A DNA stretch of 64,000 bases from Azospirillum sp. 51_20 (GCA_001917175.1 MNTV01000020.1:114810-178809), one strand, 5' to 3'; positions 17,534-23,630 are shown, counted from the stretch's first letter. Program-made: numbers and translations. Notes: a model not told the origin generated them from the letters alone.

Positions 17534-17742
17534 TGTCTTTCTCCGTAACCGTTCCATTAATACATACCATAGCACGAAAAACGACCGCCGGTTGTTATAG
17601 TTTTGTGACAAAAAAGCCGGAAAGGGGAAACGCCGCCGGCAAAAATAAAACGCCCCCCTGTTCACTTTGCAATTGCACATTATTATTATTTGGTTTAGTT
17701 ATGGAAAACAATATCAACTTTATCTGACAGGAAAATTTTACA

Positions 17743-18681
17743 ATGGCAAAAATCACTTGGAAACCGGGAACGATGGAATATCCTCTGCCGCCGGTTATGG
17801 TCAGCTGCGGGAGCATGGAAAAACCCAACGTCATGACCGCCGCCTGGACCGGCATCGTCAGCAGCGACCCGGCAATGACTTATGTTTCGATCCGCCCTTC
17901 CCGCTACTCGCACGAGCTGATTAAGGAAAGCGGCGAATTCGTGATCAACCTGACCACCCTGCCGCTGGTGACCGCCGCCGACTTCTGCGGCGTCAAATCC
18001 GGCCGCGACACCGACAAATTCAAGGAAATGAATCTGACGCCCGGCGCCTGCTCGCAGGTTTCCTGCCCGCAGATTATGGAAAGCCCGGTTTCAATCGAGT
18101 GCAAAGTGGTCAGCGTCACCAACTACGGCAGTCACGACATGTTCCTGGCGGAAATTGTCGCCGTCAACGTCGACGACAAATATCTTGACCAGGACGGCAA
18201 ACTGTGGCTGGAAAAAGCCGGACTGATCGCCTATTCGCACAATTACTACTACACCCTCGGCCGCAACGTCGGCTTTTTCGGCTTCTCCGTCTGCCGCAGC
18301 GCGCTCAAAGCCCGCGAAAAGATGAAAAACGTGGTGGTTGAGGTCAAAGAACCGAAAATTGCCAAAACGGAAAAGGACAGCAAATTCACCCGCAAAAAAT
18401 GGACCCCGAAACCGGAAAACCCCCGCGGACGGGAAGGAAAGTTCAACGGCCGAGAGAAGTTCGAGCGCTCCCGCAGAATGCGTTTCGACGACAATGAAAA
18501 CCCGGCCGGAACCCCGCGCAAACCGGGCAGAAAATTCGGTTTTGACAAAAACTCCGCCCCGCGCAAAAAATTCGACGACAGATTCGAAAACGGCAGTTCG
18601 GAACGGCAAACGGGAACCGGCAGACACGAAGGCGGCTTCAACCGCCGGCCGCGTCATCCGATGAACAAACCGCGCGGTTAA
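17743..18681 (+). CDS. Flavin reductase-like domain fused to a ~120-aa Lys/Arg/Gly-rich tail
   Basis: N-terminal ~190 aa (PLPPVMVSCGSMEKPNVMTAAWTGIVSSDPAMTYVSIRPSRYSHELIKESGEFVINL) is flavin reductase-like. The C-terminus is KFTRKKWTPKPENPRGREGKFNGREKFERSRRMRF...RRPRHPMNKPRG. Confidence 0.75.
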   Translation: MAKITWKPGTMEYPLPPVMVSCGSMEKPNVMTAAWTGIVSSDPAMTYVSIRPSRYSHELIKESGEFVINLTTLPLVTAADFCGVKSGRDTDKFKEMNLTPGACSQVSCPQIMESPVSIECKVVSVTNYGSHDMFLAEIVAVNVDDKYLDQDGKLWLEKAGLIAYSHNYYYTLGRNVGFFGFSVCRSALKAREKMKNVVVEVKEPKIAKTEKDSKFTRKKWTPKPENPRGREGKFNGREKFERSRRMRFDDNENPAGTPRKPGRKFGFDKNSAPRKKFDDRFENGSSERQTGTGRHEGGFNRRPRHPMNKPRG

Positions 18682-18711
18682 TCTGTTCTGAAAACAAGCG
18701 TCAAGACAAAA

Positions 18712-18739
18712 GGCACCGAAGCTCAACCGGTGCCTTTTT
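18712..18739 (+). terminator. Rho-independent terminator
   Basis: GGCACCG-N9-CGGTGCC followed by T5. Confidence 0.6.
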
Positions 18740-18754
18740 ATATGCCGCTTTTGA

Positions 18755-18934
18755 CCGCTGCACGCGGCTGAAAACCCGTCGGCAGTTCAACCTCCGGCAA
18801 CCGTCAGACGACACCGGCGGCAACTTTTCCCCTTCGGCAATTTTCCGCTGCACGCGGCCGAAAACCCGCTGACAGTTCTACTTCCGGCAACCGTCAGACA
18901 ACACCGGCGGCAACTTTTCCCCTTCGGCAATTCT
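18755..18934. repeat. Tandem direct repeat, 2 x 90 bp
   Basis: CCGCTGCACGCGGCTGAAAACCCG...CAACTTTTCCCCTTCGGCAATT occurs at 18755 and again at 18845 with a few substitutions. Confidence 0.8.
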
Positions 18935-19201
18935 CCGCCGGTCATTTCCGCCGCCGTTTTTCACGGTACCGTTCCCGATGCGCCCGCTTCTCTCAATCAG
19001 TTCGATTTTGAGCTCTTTGCCGTAAAACTCAAGCAGATGACGGTAGTATTCCCATTTGCGTACGCTGCCTATCTCCATGTTGTCAATCACGTACCAGGGA
19101 ATCCCGGTCTTGGTTGCCACCGTTTTTAATTGCAGAAAACGGTCACAACGGTATTTGTGCAGCTCTTGTCCGATTATTTTTTTGATTTTGTTGTTAAACA
19201 T
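18878..19201 (-). CDS. Small XRE-type HTH protein; C-terminal ~19 codons lie in the tandem repeat
   Basis: MFNNKIKKIIGQELHKYRCDRFLQLKTVATKTGIPWYVIDNMEIGSVRKWEYY... AAGGGAG RBS upstream of the ATG at 19201. Confidence 0.5.
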   Translation of the reverse strand: MFNNKIKKIIGQELHKYRCDRFLQLKTVATKTGIPWYVIDNMEIGSVRKWEYYRHLLEFYGKELKIELIERSGRIGNGTVKNGGGNDRRRIAEGEKLPPVLSDGCRK

Positions 19202-19231
19202 AGTTTGAAACTCCCTTGATTTTGTTTATGG

Positions 19232-19460
19232 TAAAAACAAAACCGCCCGGGAAAAACCCTTAGGCGGAAGGAGCTCAAAAACTGTCAGTACACAGTCGCC
19301 GTTATTCGGTATATTACCGGCACTCCTTCCGAAGAAGGATAGTTTATACTGAAGATGTTTTTGAGACACCGCACCCGGCCTCCCGGATGCAGGGCTGATA
19401 TTAAAGAAAACGTCGCCCGTTGGCAAGAGCTTTCTTTTAATCAACATTCCCCTTTGTTTT
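19232..19460 (-). ncRNA. Structured RNA element, copy 1 (leader of 18878-19201?)
   Basis: The reverse strand has a ~75-nt core shared with copy 2, a UUCG-capped hairpin TCCTTC-TTCG-GAAGGA, and long-range CTCAAAAAC/GTTTTTGAG and GGAAGGAG/CTCCTTCC pairings. Terminator CCGCC...GGCGG + TTTTGTTTTT lies at 19267-19232. Confidence 0.4.
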
Positions 19461-19477
19461 GCTTATTTACCTTTGGT

Positions 19478-19830
19478 TAAAACAAAACTCACCTTGATAA
19501 ATTTAAGGTGACGGGCTTGCTAAGCAAAAACAACCGCCGCTCCGGTCGTTTTTGTCTGCAAAATCTTTGCAACATCTTAATGAGCAAGGAAAGCATAAGC
19601 GACCGCGGCGAATTCAGATGCCTAAGTGAAGAGAACTGATCAACGAACAGTCCGGGTTATTCGCGCCTGCGGCCTTATATCCCCGGCTCCCTCTTTACAG
19701 GAGTCGTTCTTTTTTCTGTGAAAGGGGCCGTCACACTCCGCCCCCGGCCTCCCGGATGCAAAACTGATATTACAGAAACTGCCGCCCGTTGGCTGGCGGA
19801 AAATCAGTCTGCCCCTTTCGCACGGAAGAA
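19478..19830 (-). ncRNA. Structured RNA element, copy 2
   Basis: On the reverse strand, closing helix GAAAGGGGC(19728-19720)/GCCCCTTTC(19819-19811) encloses the shared core. Terminator TCACCTT-N9-AAGGTGA + GTTTTGTTTT lies at 19511-19478. No RBS-supported ORF. Confidence 0.4.
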
Positions 19831-19913
19831 AAAACGCTTTCCGGAGACGTAAAATCCGAGATCCGCAAAACACGGATCCCGGACATCACAAACGTTTTCC
19901 CGCGCTTTCTCGT

Positions 19914-21143
19914 CTACAGCAGCTTTAACGGCTGGGAAGGATCACGTTCCTGTTTTTTTACCGTGGCCGGGGGTTGCTTTTTCGGCGCCCGGTAGCCCAT
20001 TTTCTTGTCAATGTAACCGCCCAGTCCGCGGCCGAAAGTCTGACGGATGTACTGTGTCATTTCGCTGGGCTTTTCCTTGAAGGTTTCCGCCGCCGCCTGC
20101 GCCTGCAGCACTTCCTCGATTTTCAGGATTTTTTCCAAAGCGTCGCGTTTTTCCGCCGCGCCTTCGATACCGTATACCGAAGCGATGTTAAACCAGATGT
20201 ACGCCTGATATTCGTTCTTCTGATAAGAGGTTCCCGCCGCCAGAATGTTGCCGAGATCCATCATTGCCTGAACGTTTCCCTGATGGGCGGCTTGGGTCAG
20301 ATATTTGACCGCGTTACCGTAGTTGCGGGGCGTACCTTCCGCATTGATGTAACGCTGCGCCAGTTCATACTGGGCTTCATCATAAGACACGGCAGCCTGT
20401 TTGATCAGGTCAAAGGCCTTTTTAAAATCCTTGGCCACCACAAAACCGCGGTAATAGGAATAGCCCATCATATATTGTGCGGTGATGTTGCCGCCTTCCG
20501 CCGCCTGCTGCAACAGTTCGACGATTCGGTTGTTGGAAACGCCGCTCGACGGCGAAGTCAGATAAATGAAAGCAAGGTTGATCGCCGCTTCCTTGTTGCC
20601 GAGTTTGGCCGCCTTGTCAAACATCTCAACCGCCTTGTTGACGTTCTTTTCGGTGCCGATGCCGCTGTAATAAAGGCTGCCGAGGTTATTGACCGCAATC
20701 ATGTCCTCCTGGGAAGCCGCCATCGAATAATAGCGGAAAGCCTTTTCCTCGTCGCGGGTCACGCCGTTTTCGCCGTAAAGATACATGTAACCGAGAGTCA
20801 GACAGGCGTCAACGTCGCCTTCTTCCGCCAGACGGGTCATCCGGTCGAGGAAGTTTTCCTGGGGCTCATCAGGTTTGCGGGCAAATTCCTCCACTTTCTT
20901 TTTGTTTTTAAGGAACGAGAAATTCAGAAACGAAAACATTCCTTCGTCGTCCACTTTCACTTTTTCCTCTTCCTTTTTGTTTTCCGGCTCAACCCGGCGT
21001 TCGGGTTTGTCGGACACGGAAACCTTTTCTTCCTTTTTGGGCTCCTCCCCGAACAAATCAATCAGCGACATGTCGTCGTCGGCCGCCCGGGCAGCAAAGG
21101 AAACAAGCATCGCACAGGCGAAAAGCGCAAACATTTTCGGCAT
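19914..21143 (-). CDS. Exported Sel1-repeat (TPR-like) protein
   Basis: Signal-like MPKMFALFACAMLVSFAARA. Multiple Sel1 repeats (GYMYLYGENGVTRDEEKAFRYYSMAA, NNLGSLYYSGIGTEKNVNKAVEMFDKAA ...). Start uncertain (21143/21134/21185). Confidence 0.75.
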   Translation of the reverse strand: MPKMFALFACAMLVSFAARAADDDMSLIDLFGEEPKKEEKVSVSDKPERRVEPENKKEEEKVKVDDEGMFSFLNFSFLKNKKKVEEFARKPDEPQENFLDRMTRLAEEGDVDACLTLGYMYLYGENGVTRDEEKAFRYYSMAASQEDMIAVNNLGSLYYSGIGTEKNVNKAVEMFDKAAKLGNKEAAINLAFIYLTSPSSGVSNNRIVELLQQAAEGGNITAQYMMGYSYYRGFVVAKDFKKAFDLIKQAAVSYDEAQYELAQRYINAEGTPRNYGNAVKYLTQAAHQGNVQAMMDLGNILAAGTSYQKNEYQAYIWFNIASVYGIEGAAEKRDALEKILKIEEVLQAQAAAETFKEKPSEMTQYIRQTFGRGLGGYIDKKMGYRAPKKQPPATVKKQERDPSQPLKLL

Positions 21144-21364
21144 TTTAAAAATCCCATCGTTAAACCAGACATTTTGTCTTATCATATACGAAAATTCCGC
21201 ATGTTCAAACTTTTTTACCGTCTTTTCTGCCGATTTTTGCCTTTCGGAACAAAGAAACGACAGCCGGCAGCACGGCCGTCTTAAGATTTTTGTTTATTTT
21301 TGCCGCCGCCGCGCTTATAATGCGCGCGGAATTTTTTATGTAAAAAGACAAAAGGATCAAGACC

Positions 21365-23185
21365 ATGCCGGCATTTGAAGCGCCCGTTTATACCTTAAAA
21401 GGCATCAAAATCCGCTTCGGCAGCAAACAGCTGTTTGAAGACGTGGAACTCTACATCAACCGCGGCGACAAAATTTCGCTGGTCGGACGCAACGGTTCCG
21501 GCAAATCGACGCTGTTAAAGATCATTGCCGGCATCATCGAACCCGACGACGGCGAAATTTTCATCCAGCCCAACGTCAAAATCGGCTACATGCCGCAGGA
21601 CGCCGACTTAAGCGGTTTTAAGACCCTGCGCGAAGCGGTTGCCGCCGGACTTGACAAACACGACGGCAGCGAAGACTACAAAACCGACATGTGGATCGAA
21701 CAGCTGGAAATTGCCGCCGACGCCGACCCCGCCACCGCTTCCGGCGGTGAACGGCGCAAAGCGACGCTGGCCAGGGCACTGATCGAAGAACCGGACATTC
21801 TGCTTTTGGACGAACCAACCAACCACCTCGACATGCCGACCATCGAAAAACTGGAAAAAATCATCGGCGGTTACGGCGGCGCCGTCGTCGTCATCAGCCA
21901 CGACCGGCGTTTTCTCACCAACATTTCGCGCACCACCTTCTGGCTCGACCGCGGAACCCTGCGCCGCAACAACAAAGGTTTCGGCAGCTTTGAAGAATGG
22001 CAGGACCAGGTGATCGAACAGGAAATCATCGCCCAAAAACATCTCAACAAAAAAATCGCCGAAGAAACCGAGTGGCTGCACAAAGGCGTCACCGCACGGC
22101 GCAAACGCAACATGGGACGCCTGCGGCGTCTGATTCAGCTTCGCCAGGAACGCAAAGAACAGGTCCGCCAGATCGGCTCGGTAAACATGGATATCGAAAA
22201 TACGCCGTGGCGCTCCAAACTGGTGATTGAGGCCAAACATTTATGCAAGTCATTCGGCGACAGAACCATCGTCAACGACTTTTCGACCAAAATCATCCGC
22301 GGCAACAGAATCGGCATCGTCGGCCCTAACGGCGCCGGCAAAACCACTCTAATTAAACTGCTGACCAAAAAGCTGGCGCCCGATTCCGGCTTTGTCAGAA
22401 TCGGCAAAAACCTGGAAGAAGCCTATTTTGATCAGAACCGTTTTATCCTTGACCCGGGCAAAACCTTATGGCAGACGCTCTGCGACCAGGGCGACCACAT
22501 CTGGGTGCGCGGCAGCTGGCGACACGTGGTGGCTTATCTGAAAGACTTTCTGTTTACGCCGGAGCAGGCCAAATCGCCGGTAGCCGCCCTGTCCGGCGGT
22601 GAAAAAAACCGGCTGATGCTGGCCAAGGTACTGGCGCAGCCGTCAAACTTTCTGCTTTTGGACGAACCGACCAACGACCTCGACATGGATACCCTCGACC
22701 TCTTGCAGGAAACGCTCGGCGATTATGACGGAACCATCATGATCGTCAGCCATGACCGCGATTTTCTTGACAAAATCGTCACTTCCGTCATCTATATGAA
22801 AGGCGACGGCAAAGTTGAGGAACACGTCGGCAGCTACAGCGACCTGATTGAACATCTGAGCCGAAGGGAGCCGCCGGCAATGCCGAACAAAAACAAACCG
22901 GCCGCCGCCAAAAACAACGGCGGACAAAAACGGGAACCCGCGCGCGGCAAACTCAGCTATAACCAGCAGCGGCTGCTTGCCGTCCTGCCGGAACAGATCG
23001 CGCAAACGGAAAAGGAAATCGAACAAATCCGCGCCGACCTGAGCGATCCGGAACTTTACCAAAACGACGCAGACCGTTTTCTTACCCTTACCGACCGGCT
23101 GGAAGAACTGGAACAAAAAAAGGAAGCGGACGAAAACCAATGGCTGGAAATTTCAATGCTGGCGGAAGAATTGTCCGCCGGCTGA
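21365..23185 (+). CDS. ABC-F family ATPase (Uup-like, two ABC domains + C-terminal coiled coil)
   Basis: Two Walker A motifs (GRNGSGKST, GPNGAGKTT), two signature motifs (ASGGERRKA, LSGGEKNRL), no TM domain. Confidence 0.9.
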   Translation: MPAFEAPVYTLKGIKIRFGSKQLFEDVELYINRGDKISLVGRNGSGKSTLLKIIAGIIEPDDGEIFIQPNVKIGYMPQDADLSGFKTLREAVAAGLDKHDGSEDYKTDMWIEQLEIAADADPATASGGERRKATLARALIEEPDILLLDEPTNHLDMPTIEKLEKIIGGYGGAVVVISHDRRFLTNISRTTFWLDRGTLRRNNKGFGSFEEWQDQVIEQEIIAQKHLNKKIAEETEWLHKGVTARRKRNMGRLRRLIQLRQERKEQVRQIGSVNMDIENTPWRSKLVIEAKHLCKSFGDRTIVNDFSTKIIRGNRIGIVGPNGAGKTTLIKLLTKKLAPDSGFVRIGKNLEEAYFDQNRFILDPGKTLWQTLCDQGDHIWVRGSWRHVVAYLKDFLFTPEQAKSPVAALSGGEKNRLMLAKVLAQPSNFLLLDEPTNDLDMDTLDLLQETLGDYDGTIMIVSHDRDFLDKIVTSVIYMKGDGKVEEHVGSYSDLIEHLSRREPPAMPNKNKPAAAKNNGGQKREPARGKLSYNQQRLLAVLPEQIAQTEKEIEQIRADLSDPELYQNDADRFLTLTDRLEELEQKKEADENQWLEISMLAEELSAG

Positions 23186-23630
23186 ACAAACGATCCGCAC
23201 TCCCGGCCGGTTATCCGCCAAGCCTTTGAAGCGCTCCAATGAGCAAGAAGGTTTCGGCAACACAGATGTCTGAACGAAGACGGCCGGTTCCGGATCGTCT
23301 GTGCTTATAACCTCATGTTCCCGGCTTTTTCTGATCAGAAGCCGCCTTTTTATGTACTTGAGAAACCATTGCACACCGCACTCGGGCGTCCCCGCATCGC
23401 TAAAAAACGCCTGTTTTCAGCAAACGGCAAATCATTTTGCCCGTCATGCGGAGAACAAACGCTCACAATAAGGTTTGCGAAAACGTTTTCTGATCGTTAC
23501 CCCTGCACCTTTCATCCTTCGTCCGCCGAAAACCGGTATTAACCGGCCGTCCCTGCCCAAATCGGCCGCACGCCACTGGCCATCTCCAAATCCAACCTCC
23601 AAACTCCTGAAACCAACGCCTTCTTAAAAA

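Follow-up and report, generated by a model that had tools for sequence, protein, structure and literature searches.

The minus strand of a stretch of Azospirillum sp. 51_20 (GCA_001917175.1 MNTV01000020.1:114810-178809; 64,000 nt, the whole of which is called the window) carries two tandem units of a structured RNA in front of a gene for a small XRE-type regulator; all unit positions below refer to this strand. The RNA family is real, is absent from Rfam and comes from uncultured gut Alphaproteobacteria. The proximal unit, next to the gene, comprises a promoter at 19426-19398 and an RNA at ~19390-19233 (~158 nt predicted). The distal unit has its promoter at 19795-19767 and its RNA at ~19759-19479 (~281 nt predicted). 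With somewhat better than even probability, the last unit is a terminator-containing leader of the attenuator type that doubles as a small RNA (sRNA). The comparative data give a defined promoter, fold and terminator to a well-supported family that is present in hundreds of copies in human-gut Alphaproteobacteria and in no database.

The RNA family and its covarying fold

A sequence-only reading of this region had described a tandem pair of structured RNAs, read from the minus strand and each bounded by a terminator, that match no known class, and this description stands. The copies appear as 59-nt direct repeats (19366-19424 and 19735-19793) with 85% identity, 369 nt apart, and G-U pairs occur in their covarying helices. 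A degenerate 30-nt pattern of the shared core has exactly two matches in the 64-kb window (0.00 expected from shuffles). Two units and no more match the covariance model in the window: 19270-19390 with 71.6 bits and 19625-19759 with 77.5 bits, each on the minus strand. Searching the whole window against Rfam gave 0 matches at gathering score.

For the 107-aa open reading frame (ORF) downstream of the proximal unit, 53 homologues (63-151 aa) were found; wherever a source is named, it is a gut metagenome-assembled genome (MAG) of the 'Azospirillum sp. 51_20' type. In 23 loci taken around diverse homologues, the core is present upstream of the gene in every case (23/23) in 1-4 copies, and the proximal copy always occupies roughly positions -240 to -160 relative to the ATG. 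Over 210 nt, leaders share 90% identity where the proteins share only 68-74%. A scan of metagenomes yielded 75 loci, several of them sharing a contig in some cases, and all contig names that state a source indicate the human gut. In all, 181 related units were gathered from gut alphaproteobacterial MAGs and metagenomes. Scanning species-representative genomes with a 22-mer revealed true copies only in gut alphaproteobacterial MAGs, one of which contains 7 units over 5 contigs. Most of the 22-mer matches in genomes are due to chance in high-GC genomes and were discarded on inspection. The 22-mer also lies inside a conserved coding sequence of Oscillospiraceae/Flavonifractor (...FRTREAGCGGCSN.CEIICVYRG...) that is unrelated to the RNA (L033, L034, L047, L065, L068, L073, L088, L090, L091, L093 and L099).

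The long-range part of the fold, the rod P2, was found unprompted by RNAalifold, which in a MAFFT alignment of 32 units joins the nucleotides just past P1, the 5'-terminal hairpin, to those just before the terminator in a long-range helix. Minimum free energy (MFE) folds of single sequences show a matching architecture in about a dozen diverse units, plus a second long-range segment. In the MAFFT-only alignment of type-B units (17 distinct sequences), 94.1% of the cells are paired (82.1% after shuffling), double changes affect 21 pairs in 87 cells and the covariation score is 0.363, compared with 0.03-0.08 for slid pairings. The covariance-model alignment of the first loci (45 distinct sequences) has 94.5% of the cells paired and double changes at 26 pairs (294 cells). 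For an independent metagenome set (89 distinct sequences) the corresponding values are 93.4% and 27 pairs (511 cells). Slid pairings reach 33-45% and 33-48% in these two sets, respectively. Covariance-model alignments are fitted to the structure and hence biased towards the fold; the MAFFT-only alignment is free of that bias. Homologues and covariation, proposed by the sequence-only reading as a check, are both present: 181 relatives, 93.4-94.5% of the cells paired and 21-27 pairs with compensatory changes. Furthermore, cognate 5' and 3' halves pair with -20.0 kcal/mol and non-cognate halves with -10.9 kcal/mol. G-U pairs are frequent in the covarying helices when the minus strand is read as sense, which fixes the strand and the RNA level.

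This comparison shows a fold that consists of P1 and an interrupted rod of ~20 bp (P2a, P2b and P2c) closing a three-way junction with P3 and P4. The hypervariable segments b and c of the 5' strand pair, and covary perfectly, with b' and c' of the 3' strand. P2a has the general form GGAGU:ACUCC. Examples of P2b are UCAGAG:UUCUGA, UAACGG:CGUUA and CUCAAAAAC:GUUUUUGAG, and examples of P2c (c:c') are UCAAAAC:GUUUUGA and UCAGUAUA:UGUACUGA, with a small internal loop between the two helices. P3 (CUCCU:GGGAG) and P4 complete the junction, ACUG serves as joiner and the terminator abuts P2a directly. P4 is composed of P4a, a conserved internal loop (GAUAUAAG/ACGAAUAA) and a variable P4b. P1 and the internal loop of P4 are invariant in sequence, and 94 units contain 13 alleles of b' and 27 of c'. 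From P1 to the U-tract a unit measures 155-173 nt; long forms measure 270-285 nt. Both at window 19297-19322 (minus strand) and in the P4 of type-B units, the conserved internal loop GAUAUAAG/CGAAUAAG resembles two interleaved UAA/GAN motifs, which are known to make tertiary contacts.

In the proximal unit, comparative alignments place the nearly invariant P1 (GCAUCCGG-GAGG-CCGGGUGC) at 19371-19390. According to folds and alignments, the 5' strand of the P2 rod (19345-19370) contains P2a (GGUGU), P2b (CUCAAAAAC, variable segment b), the internal loop AUCU and P2c (UCAGUAUA, variable segment c). The hairpin UCCUUC-UUCG-GAAGGA (X:X', 19324-19339), already recognized by the sequence-only reading, is a real helix and corresponds to P3 in the folds and in the covariance-model alignment. 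P4 (UGCCG...CGGCG, 19297-19322) carries the conserved loop GUAAUAUACCGAAUAA; the P4b extension is lacking in type-A units. The junction strand J4/2 (ACUG) and the 3' strand of P2 follow at 19270-19296, the latter with c' (UGUACUGA), CA, b' (GUUUUUGAG) and the 3' part of P2a (CUCC). The structured body of the distal unit (19625-19759) comprises P1, the 5' strand of P2, P3, P4 and c'. Its P1 (GCAUCCGG-GAGG-CCGGGGGC, 19740-19759) has one A.G mismatch and belongs to a recurrent subtype (pair 3:18 is classed as 'other' in 11 sequences).

Predicted promoter and the shared core

As judged from 40 distinct units, the core shared by the two copies is a sigma-70-type promoter (TTGCCA-17-TAATAT) followed by P1, the hairpin with which the transcript is predicted to start. 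Conservation between loci starts exactly at the -35 hexamer TTGCCA. The pattern TTGnnA-17-TAnnAT is held across the 40 units while the spacer varies: the TTG is kept in 37/40 and TAATAT in 38/40, the spacing is fixed at 17 nt, and the first two-thirds of the spacer vary freely (ACGGGCGG, AAAACCGG, ATGACCGG, ATCCGCAG and AAAGCGAA, among others). Invariant P1 (GCAUCCGG-GAGG-CCGGRUGC) begins 6-7 nt past the -10 hexamer. With hexamers that resemble TTGACA and TATAAT, lie 17 nt apart (16-18 nt being usual for the class) and are more conserved than their spacer, the element qualifies as a predicted promoter of the sigma-70 type.

The proximal unit has its -35 hexamer TTGCCA at 19421-19426 and, after a 17-nt spacer, its -10 hexamer TAATAT at 19398-19403, 7 nt ahead of P1; its transcript is predicted to start at ~19390-19391. 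In the distal unit, the -35-like hexamer CAGCCA (19790-19795) is weak (TTGCCA in most relatives) and TAATAT (19767-19772) lies 17 nt past it. The units are separated by a spacer (AACCAAAGGUAAAUAAGCAAAACAAAGGGGAAUGUUGAUUAAAAGAAAGCUC, 19427-19478) that is conserved in multi-unit arrays and A/T-rich 5' of the next promoter.

The sequence-only reading had interpreted the ~75-nt core as an RNA three-way junction inside a 9-bp helix. One of its helices, CCGG-GAGG-CCGG, is real and equals P1. The other two, CTGAT/ATCAG and GCC-AACG-GGC, lie in the promoter spacer and in upstream DNA. All pairings can be drawn in both window copies, but these two helices are lost without compensation in relatives (TTGTCAAAAACC, GCCAATGACC, GCCAACAAGC and GCCAAAAGCG). 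Their G-U compatible changes, once taken as structural evidence, fall in promoter DNA and are therefore not evidence of structure. The enclosing helix GAAAGGGGC/GCCCCTTTC is confined to the window and the relative closest to it, has a 5' arm located ahead of the promoter, and is likewise lost uncompensated elsewhere. The lost elements coincide with the -35 hexamer, the spacer and the -10 hexamer. Moreover, the core segment has no folding advantage over shuffles (z = -1.76). Promoter sequence makes up half of the core, and the real junction is located downstream, closed by the long-range rod. The junction within the core retains next to no probability. For annotation, the conserved 'core' is a promoter with a 5' hairpin and not an aptamer.

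P1 also bears on another explanation, by which the region is duplicated regulatory DNA only, i.e. a promoter with the palindromic operator CATCC-N8-GGATG (+1 to +20) for the XRE protein and no functional RNA. P1 forms a nearly perfect palindrome of 20 bp where transcription is predicted to start, the downstream protein shares the fold of HipB-, DdrO- and SinR-type repressors, and the operator of HipB is TATCC-N8-GGATA. However, the ~120 nt past P1 hold 26-27 compensatory pairs, many of them involving G-U, which are explicable only as RNA on the minus strand. Additionally, P1 is invariant although the predicted recognition helices vary between the protein subfamilies (PWYVIDNME, PWQMIDALE and PPAAIDQLE), which makes P1 doubtful as a common operator of these proteins. 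Regulatory DNA as the sole function is very unlikely; P1 may act as an operator in addition to its role in the RNA.

Terminators, downstream gene and proposed function of the units

Both intrinsic terminators were found where the sequence-only reading had placed them, at 19267-19233 in the proximal unit (CCGCCUAAGGGUUUUUCCCGGGCGG and UUUUGUUUUU) and at 19512-19479 in the distal unit (GUCACCUUAAAUUUAUCAAGGUGAG and UUUUGUUUU). A G+C-rich hairpin is followed by a U-tract in each, and both are predicted to terminate transcription. The terminator hairpin is swapped between units: two unrelated sequences occupy the identical position and the U-tract UUUUGUUU is kept. The region past the proximal terminator (19199-19232) contains the invariant segment ACCAUAAACAAAAUCAAGGGAGUUUCAAACUAUG, a Shine-Dalgarno (SD) sequence AAGGGAG (19211-19217) and the start codon (19199-19201). 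The XRE gene thus begins at 19201, ~30 nt past the proximal U-tract, and copy 1 is its leader, as had been proposed. The U-tract UUUUGUUU (19233-19242) is exactly complementary to AAACAAAA (19221-19228), located just 5' of the SD sequence, and this is alike in all proximal units. Read-through transcripts could therefore form a hairpin beside the ribosome-binding site.

The position of the gene is conserved. SD sequence and ATG of a small ORF with XRE fold lie ~30 nt past the last unit in 75 of the 77 arrays with enough 3' sequence; 72 arrays end in the canonical AAACAAAA-SD-ATG, 3 in a like gene with a slightly altered SD context, and 2 are exceptions. Between the proximal terminator and the SD sequence no promoter is evident, which implies that the XRE gene would have to be expressed via read-through. 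Its 107-aa product (18878-19201, minus strand) combines an N-terminal four-helix helix-turn-helix domain of the XRE/Cro type with a disordered C-terminal tail. No match was found in Pfam or NCBIfam and no useful one in PHROG; the family profile weakly matches SinR and XRE chains (E = 0.004-0.1). The AlphaFold2 model shows four helices with a predicted local distance difference test (pLDDT) score of ~90 and the disordered tail. Foldseek relates it with probability 1.0 and template-modelling scores of up to 0.8 (target-normalised) to HipB, DdrO, SinR and 434 Cro, and also matched C.BclI. The assignment as XRE-type is supported at the level of the modelled fold. The downstream proteins fall into three or more subfamilies, which are 31-48% identical to one another. 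Two XRE genes of relatives look broken, one by a frameshift in a 5' A-run (A8 for A6, L081:2984-3115) and one, behind a four-unit array, by a change of the start codon from ATG to ATA (L010:2890).

In the proposed mechanism, each unit would be transcribed from its sigma-70-type promoter into an RNA that starts with P1 and ends at a strong intrinsic terminator. The ground state would keep the terminator intact, so that most transcripts would end as free RNAs of ~158 nt (proximal) and ~281 nt (distal), and the mRNA of the XRE-type regulator would arise only by read-through of the last terminator. Extra units would be amplified copies that supply free RNA. Less firmly, an alternative fold similar to that of sRNA-Xcc1 (see below) might strip 2-3 bp from the terminator stem beside the U-tract and thereby favour read-through.

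This alternative fold can be drawn in every unit and has the topology of sRNA-Xcc1. It comprises a local hairpin a:a', the helix X':X'' (GGAAGGAG:CUCCUUCC), P4 and ACUG:CAGU. The sequence-only reading had noted mutually exclusive pairings in copy 1, and these are possible: GGAAGGAG can pair either locally in P3 or with CTCCTTCC beside the terminator. In each of three sequence classes, X'' (CUCCUUCC) reaches by 2-3 nt into the U-tract end of the terminator stem, and X':X'' retains 6-8 bp. One compensatory indel backs this helix (GGAAGGAG/CUCCUUCC versus GGAGGAG/CUCCUCC), and the hairpin a:a' is preserved by differing sequences in the two types of unit (GGAG:CUCC and GGUGU:ACAUC). A P5 hairpin (ACUG...CAGU) with X':X'' was considered as the main fold and dropped, as covariation pairs c' with the linker segment c.

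Several observations speak against a leader that switches. In well-matched units, the covariation-supported ("locked") fold is favoured over the alternative by 9-17 kcal/mol, so a switch would need an input; for the proximal window unit, a well-matched type A, the difference is 9.2 kcal/mol. The alternative helix takes away just 2-3 bp of the terminator. Its helices are nearly invariant and so beyond proof by covariation. Start site, termination efficiency and read-through are all deduced from sequence. Finally, distal units without an ORF behind them keep an intact covarying structure. A purely cis-acting leader does not account for this, which suggests that the free RNA itself matters.

The same distal units, with their own promoter and terminator, are an argument for a different emphasis. 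On this view, the main product is an independent sRNA, made in excess, that acts in trans or binds a protein, and the XRE gene is a linked regulator or partner whose expression is kept at a fixed low ratio via terminator leak. Arrays of 2-4 units are common, the ground-state fold keeps the terminator intact, and the invariance of P1 and of the P4 internal loop fits a binding site. Bacterial sRNAs usually end in a terminator hairpin with a U-tract. The layout resembles that of type III toxin-antitoxin loci, though there is no sign of a toxin. On the other hand, the near-absolute tie to one gene family and the invariant 30-nt SD segment past the terminator point to cis coupling. No conserved single-stranded, seed-like stretch is evident, and the ground state leaves no CUCC motif unpaired. 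Nor do the variable segments target the translation start region of their own unit (-7.9 kcal/mol for cognate, -7.6 kcal/mol for non-cognate pairs); targeting in the manner of c4 RNA found no support, as cognate keys do no better there than non-cognate ones. A mainly free-standing RNA is a serious possibility of clearly lower probability than the leader that doubles as sRNA.

A metabolite or ion riboswitch would use the three-way junction as aptamer and the terminator as expression platform. In its favour, the junction strands and the internal loop show conservation and the helices variation, with the terminator immediately behind; tandem complete riboswitches exist. However, P2 and the terminator abut and coexist in MFE folds without competing, and the sole competitor removes 2-3 bp. 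Each unit of an array is preceded by a promoter of its own, and the distal ones have no ORF under their control. With five or more loci per genome, each in front of a paralogous small regulator, the set would be atypical of a riboswitch regulon, and Rfam riboswitch families are absent even at E<=10. The riboswitch reading given earlier for copy 1 is unproven: the terminator is intact in the ground state that covariation supports, and nothing points to a ligand or trigger. A riboswitch is unlikely. In order of likelihood, the leader doubling as sRNA comes first, followed by an RNA that acts mainly in trans or by binding a protein, and then by a riboswitch.

In several units (L003, L005, L015-L018, L021 and L050; L103, L132 and L171), the 5' half (b, c) and the 3' half (c', b') are not cognate. 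In units mismatched in this way, the locked fold is lost and the alternative is the MFE fold; the two folds differ by ~0-5 kcal/mol, compared with 9-17 kcal/mol in matched units. Such units could be real recombinants between paralogous units or chimeras of short-read assembly. One mismatched combination recurs in four contigs of different samples. It is conceivable, though improbable, that the hypervariable segment pairs are orthogonal 'key and lock' addresses re-assorted by recombination among paralogous units. Arrays would then form a combinatorial on/off switch for XRE regulators, or distal free RNA would unlock cognate leaders in trans. If true, this would be a new way of gating regulators.

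The distal unit departs from the consensus by its weak -35 hexamer, the A.G mismatch in P1, an imperfect c:c' helix and an insert of ~115-120 nt (19513-19632). The insert replaces the 3' strand of P2a and P2b, has its own terminator-like hairpin (CGACCGGAGCGGCGGUUG followed by U5) and is not coding. Its 35-codon ORF is not conserved, as a relative (L024) has ACG for ATG and a 13-nt deletion, in agreement with the earlier statement that copy 2 has no credible ORF. The insert recurs in at least five other units with differing variable segments, some of them gene-proximal (L022, L024, L044, L081, L149 and L166). It is therefore an alternative 'long form' rather than a one-off lesion, and could represent a small mobile insert or an alternative 3' module. 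Arrays range from 1 to 4 units, and 52 of 112 have 2-4 units. A hairpin CCGGGAUCCG-UGUUUUG-CGGAUCUCGG followed by AUUUU lies at 19845-19880 (minus strand), directly past the stop codon of the Sel1-repeat gene. It is probably the terminator of that gene and would insulate the distal unit from upstream transcription.

The flanks of the module vary among close relatives: it lies between Sel1 and flavin reductase genes in the window and between Sel1 and DnaJ, Pribosyltran and DnaJ, He_PIG and phosphorylase, or GtrA and Trypsin_2 elsewhere. Differing flanks between close relatives indicate that the module is multi-copy and located at rearrangement breakpoints. The family is tied almost exclusively to clade-specific small XRE regulators, with several loci per genome at synteny breakpoints. 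Comparison of L001-L023 with window positions 17700-23200 shows flanking genes swapping among Sel1, Pribosyltran/YmdB/6S RNA, DnaJ/ParA/FtsY and flavin reductase. Ordinary 6S RNA genes (L009:1224-1378 and L021:978-1132) and tRNA genes (L003/L015:1822-1893) lie near some modules, with Rfam scores above gathering. A pattern scan of IMG/VR gave 0 matches and a plasmid collection contained no unit. In a phage collection, two unannotated faecal contigs named 'UNVERIFIED Bacteriophage sp.' carry units at the contig end; phage evidence is absent on both.

Comparison with known systems

The order of promoter, structured leader, intrinsic terminator, SD sequence and ATG, with a mutually exclusive pairing beside the terminator, is that of attenuators and riboswitch platforms. 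As with the riboswitch-derived sRNAs SreA and SreB of Listeria, the leader left after termination would remain as a small RNA. Unlike these systems, the units have no leader peptide, and no ligand, tRNA or protein signal was identified. No conserved leader ORF was found, as ORFs over the units begin upstream of the promoter or cross length-variable U-tracts. Furthermore, the competitor overlaps the terminator by just 2-3 bp, and complete units including the promoter are amplified in tandem.

With type III toxin-antitoxin systems (ToxIN), the units share tandem RNA repeats, a terminator that sets the ratio of RNA to protein and a single protein gene. The repeats, however, are 250-370 nt long with their own promoters instead of processed units of 34-36 nt, and the protein is a helix-turn-helix protein of the XRE fold and not an endoribonuclease. 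The c4 and CI immunity RNAs of phages P1 and P4 likewise contain short variable 'address' segments and complementary segments in one transcript. In contrast to these, no complementary target was found at the downstream translation start, the units have no phage context, and neither Rfam C4 nor any Rfam riboswitch family matches even at E<=10.

The only notable permissive match in Rfam is sRNA-Xcc1 (RF02221), an 88-nt RNA of Xanthomonas campestris, with 30.1 bits and E = 0.0049 at 19258-19330 (minus strand; gathering score 53). Its model scores 27.4-30.2 bits in three relatives (L001, L010 and L012). These matches are limited to type-A units whose b' reads UUUUUGAG, and type-B units have no sRNA-Xcc1 match at E<=10. 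Compared via the Rfam model and published descriptions, the units are not members of sRNA-Xcc1, as score and size fail and the matches are confined to the UUUUUGAG alleles. The sRNA-Xcc1 fold has an outer stem of 9 bp around a pair of hairpins. The match takes in this stem (GGAAGGAG/CUCCUUCC), both hairpins within it and the joiner UUUUGAG, which is the topology of the alternative fold described above. The RNA of the units is about twice as long (158 and 281 nt predicted versus ~88 nt) and has a 5' hairpin and a 5' extension. In the Xcc1-like core, the partners of this extension are the loop of the second hairpin (c') and the joiner (b'), so that the fold backed by covariation is at odds with the second hairpin of the Xcc1 model. 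The joiner, conserved as UUUUGAG in sRNA-Xcc1, is hypervariable in the units (13 alleles). Finally, sRNA-Xcc1 occurs in integrons, transposons, plasmids and phages, whereas the units are found only in gut Alphaproteobacteria and not on plasmids or phages.

The layouts are nevertheless parallel in a suggestive way. sRNA-Xcc1 is reported to precede symE in integron cassettes (10.1101/2025.06.18.660453) and an ORF6N gene in the APSE phage (10.1101/2020.03.17.996009), and to form a five-copy tandem array in Xylella with copies ~385 nt apart (PMC12189769). With its defined promoter, fold and terminator, the present family offers a handle on this unexplained class, which likewise precedes small genes and occurs in tandem arrays.

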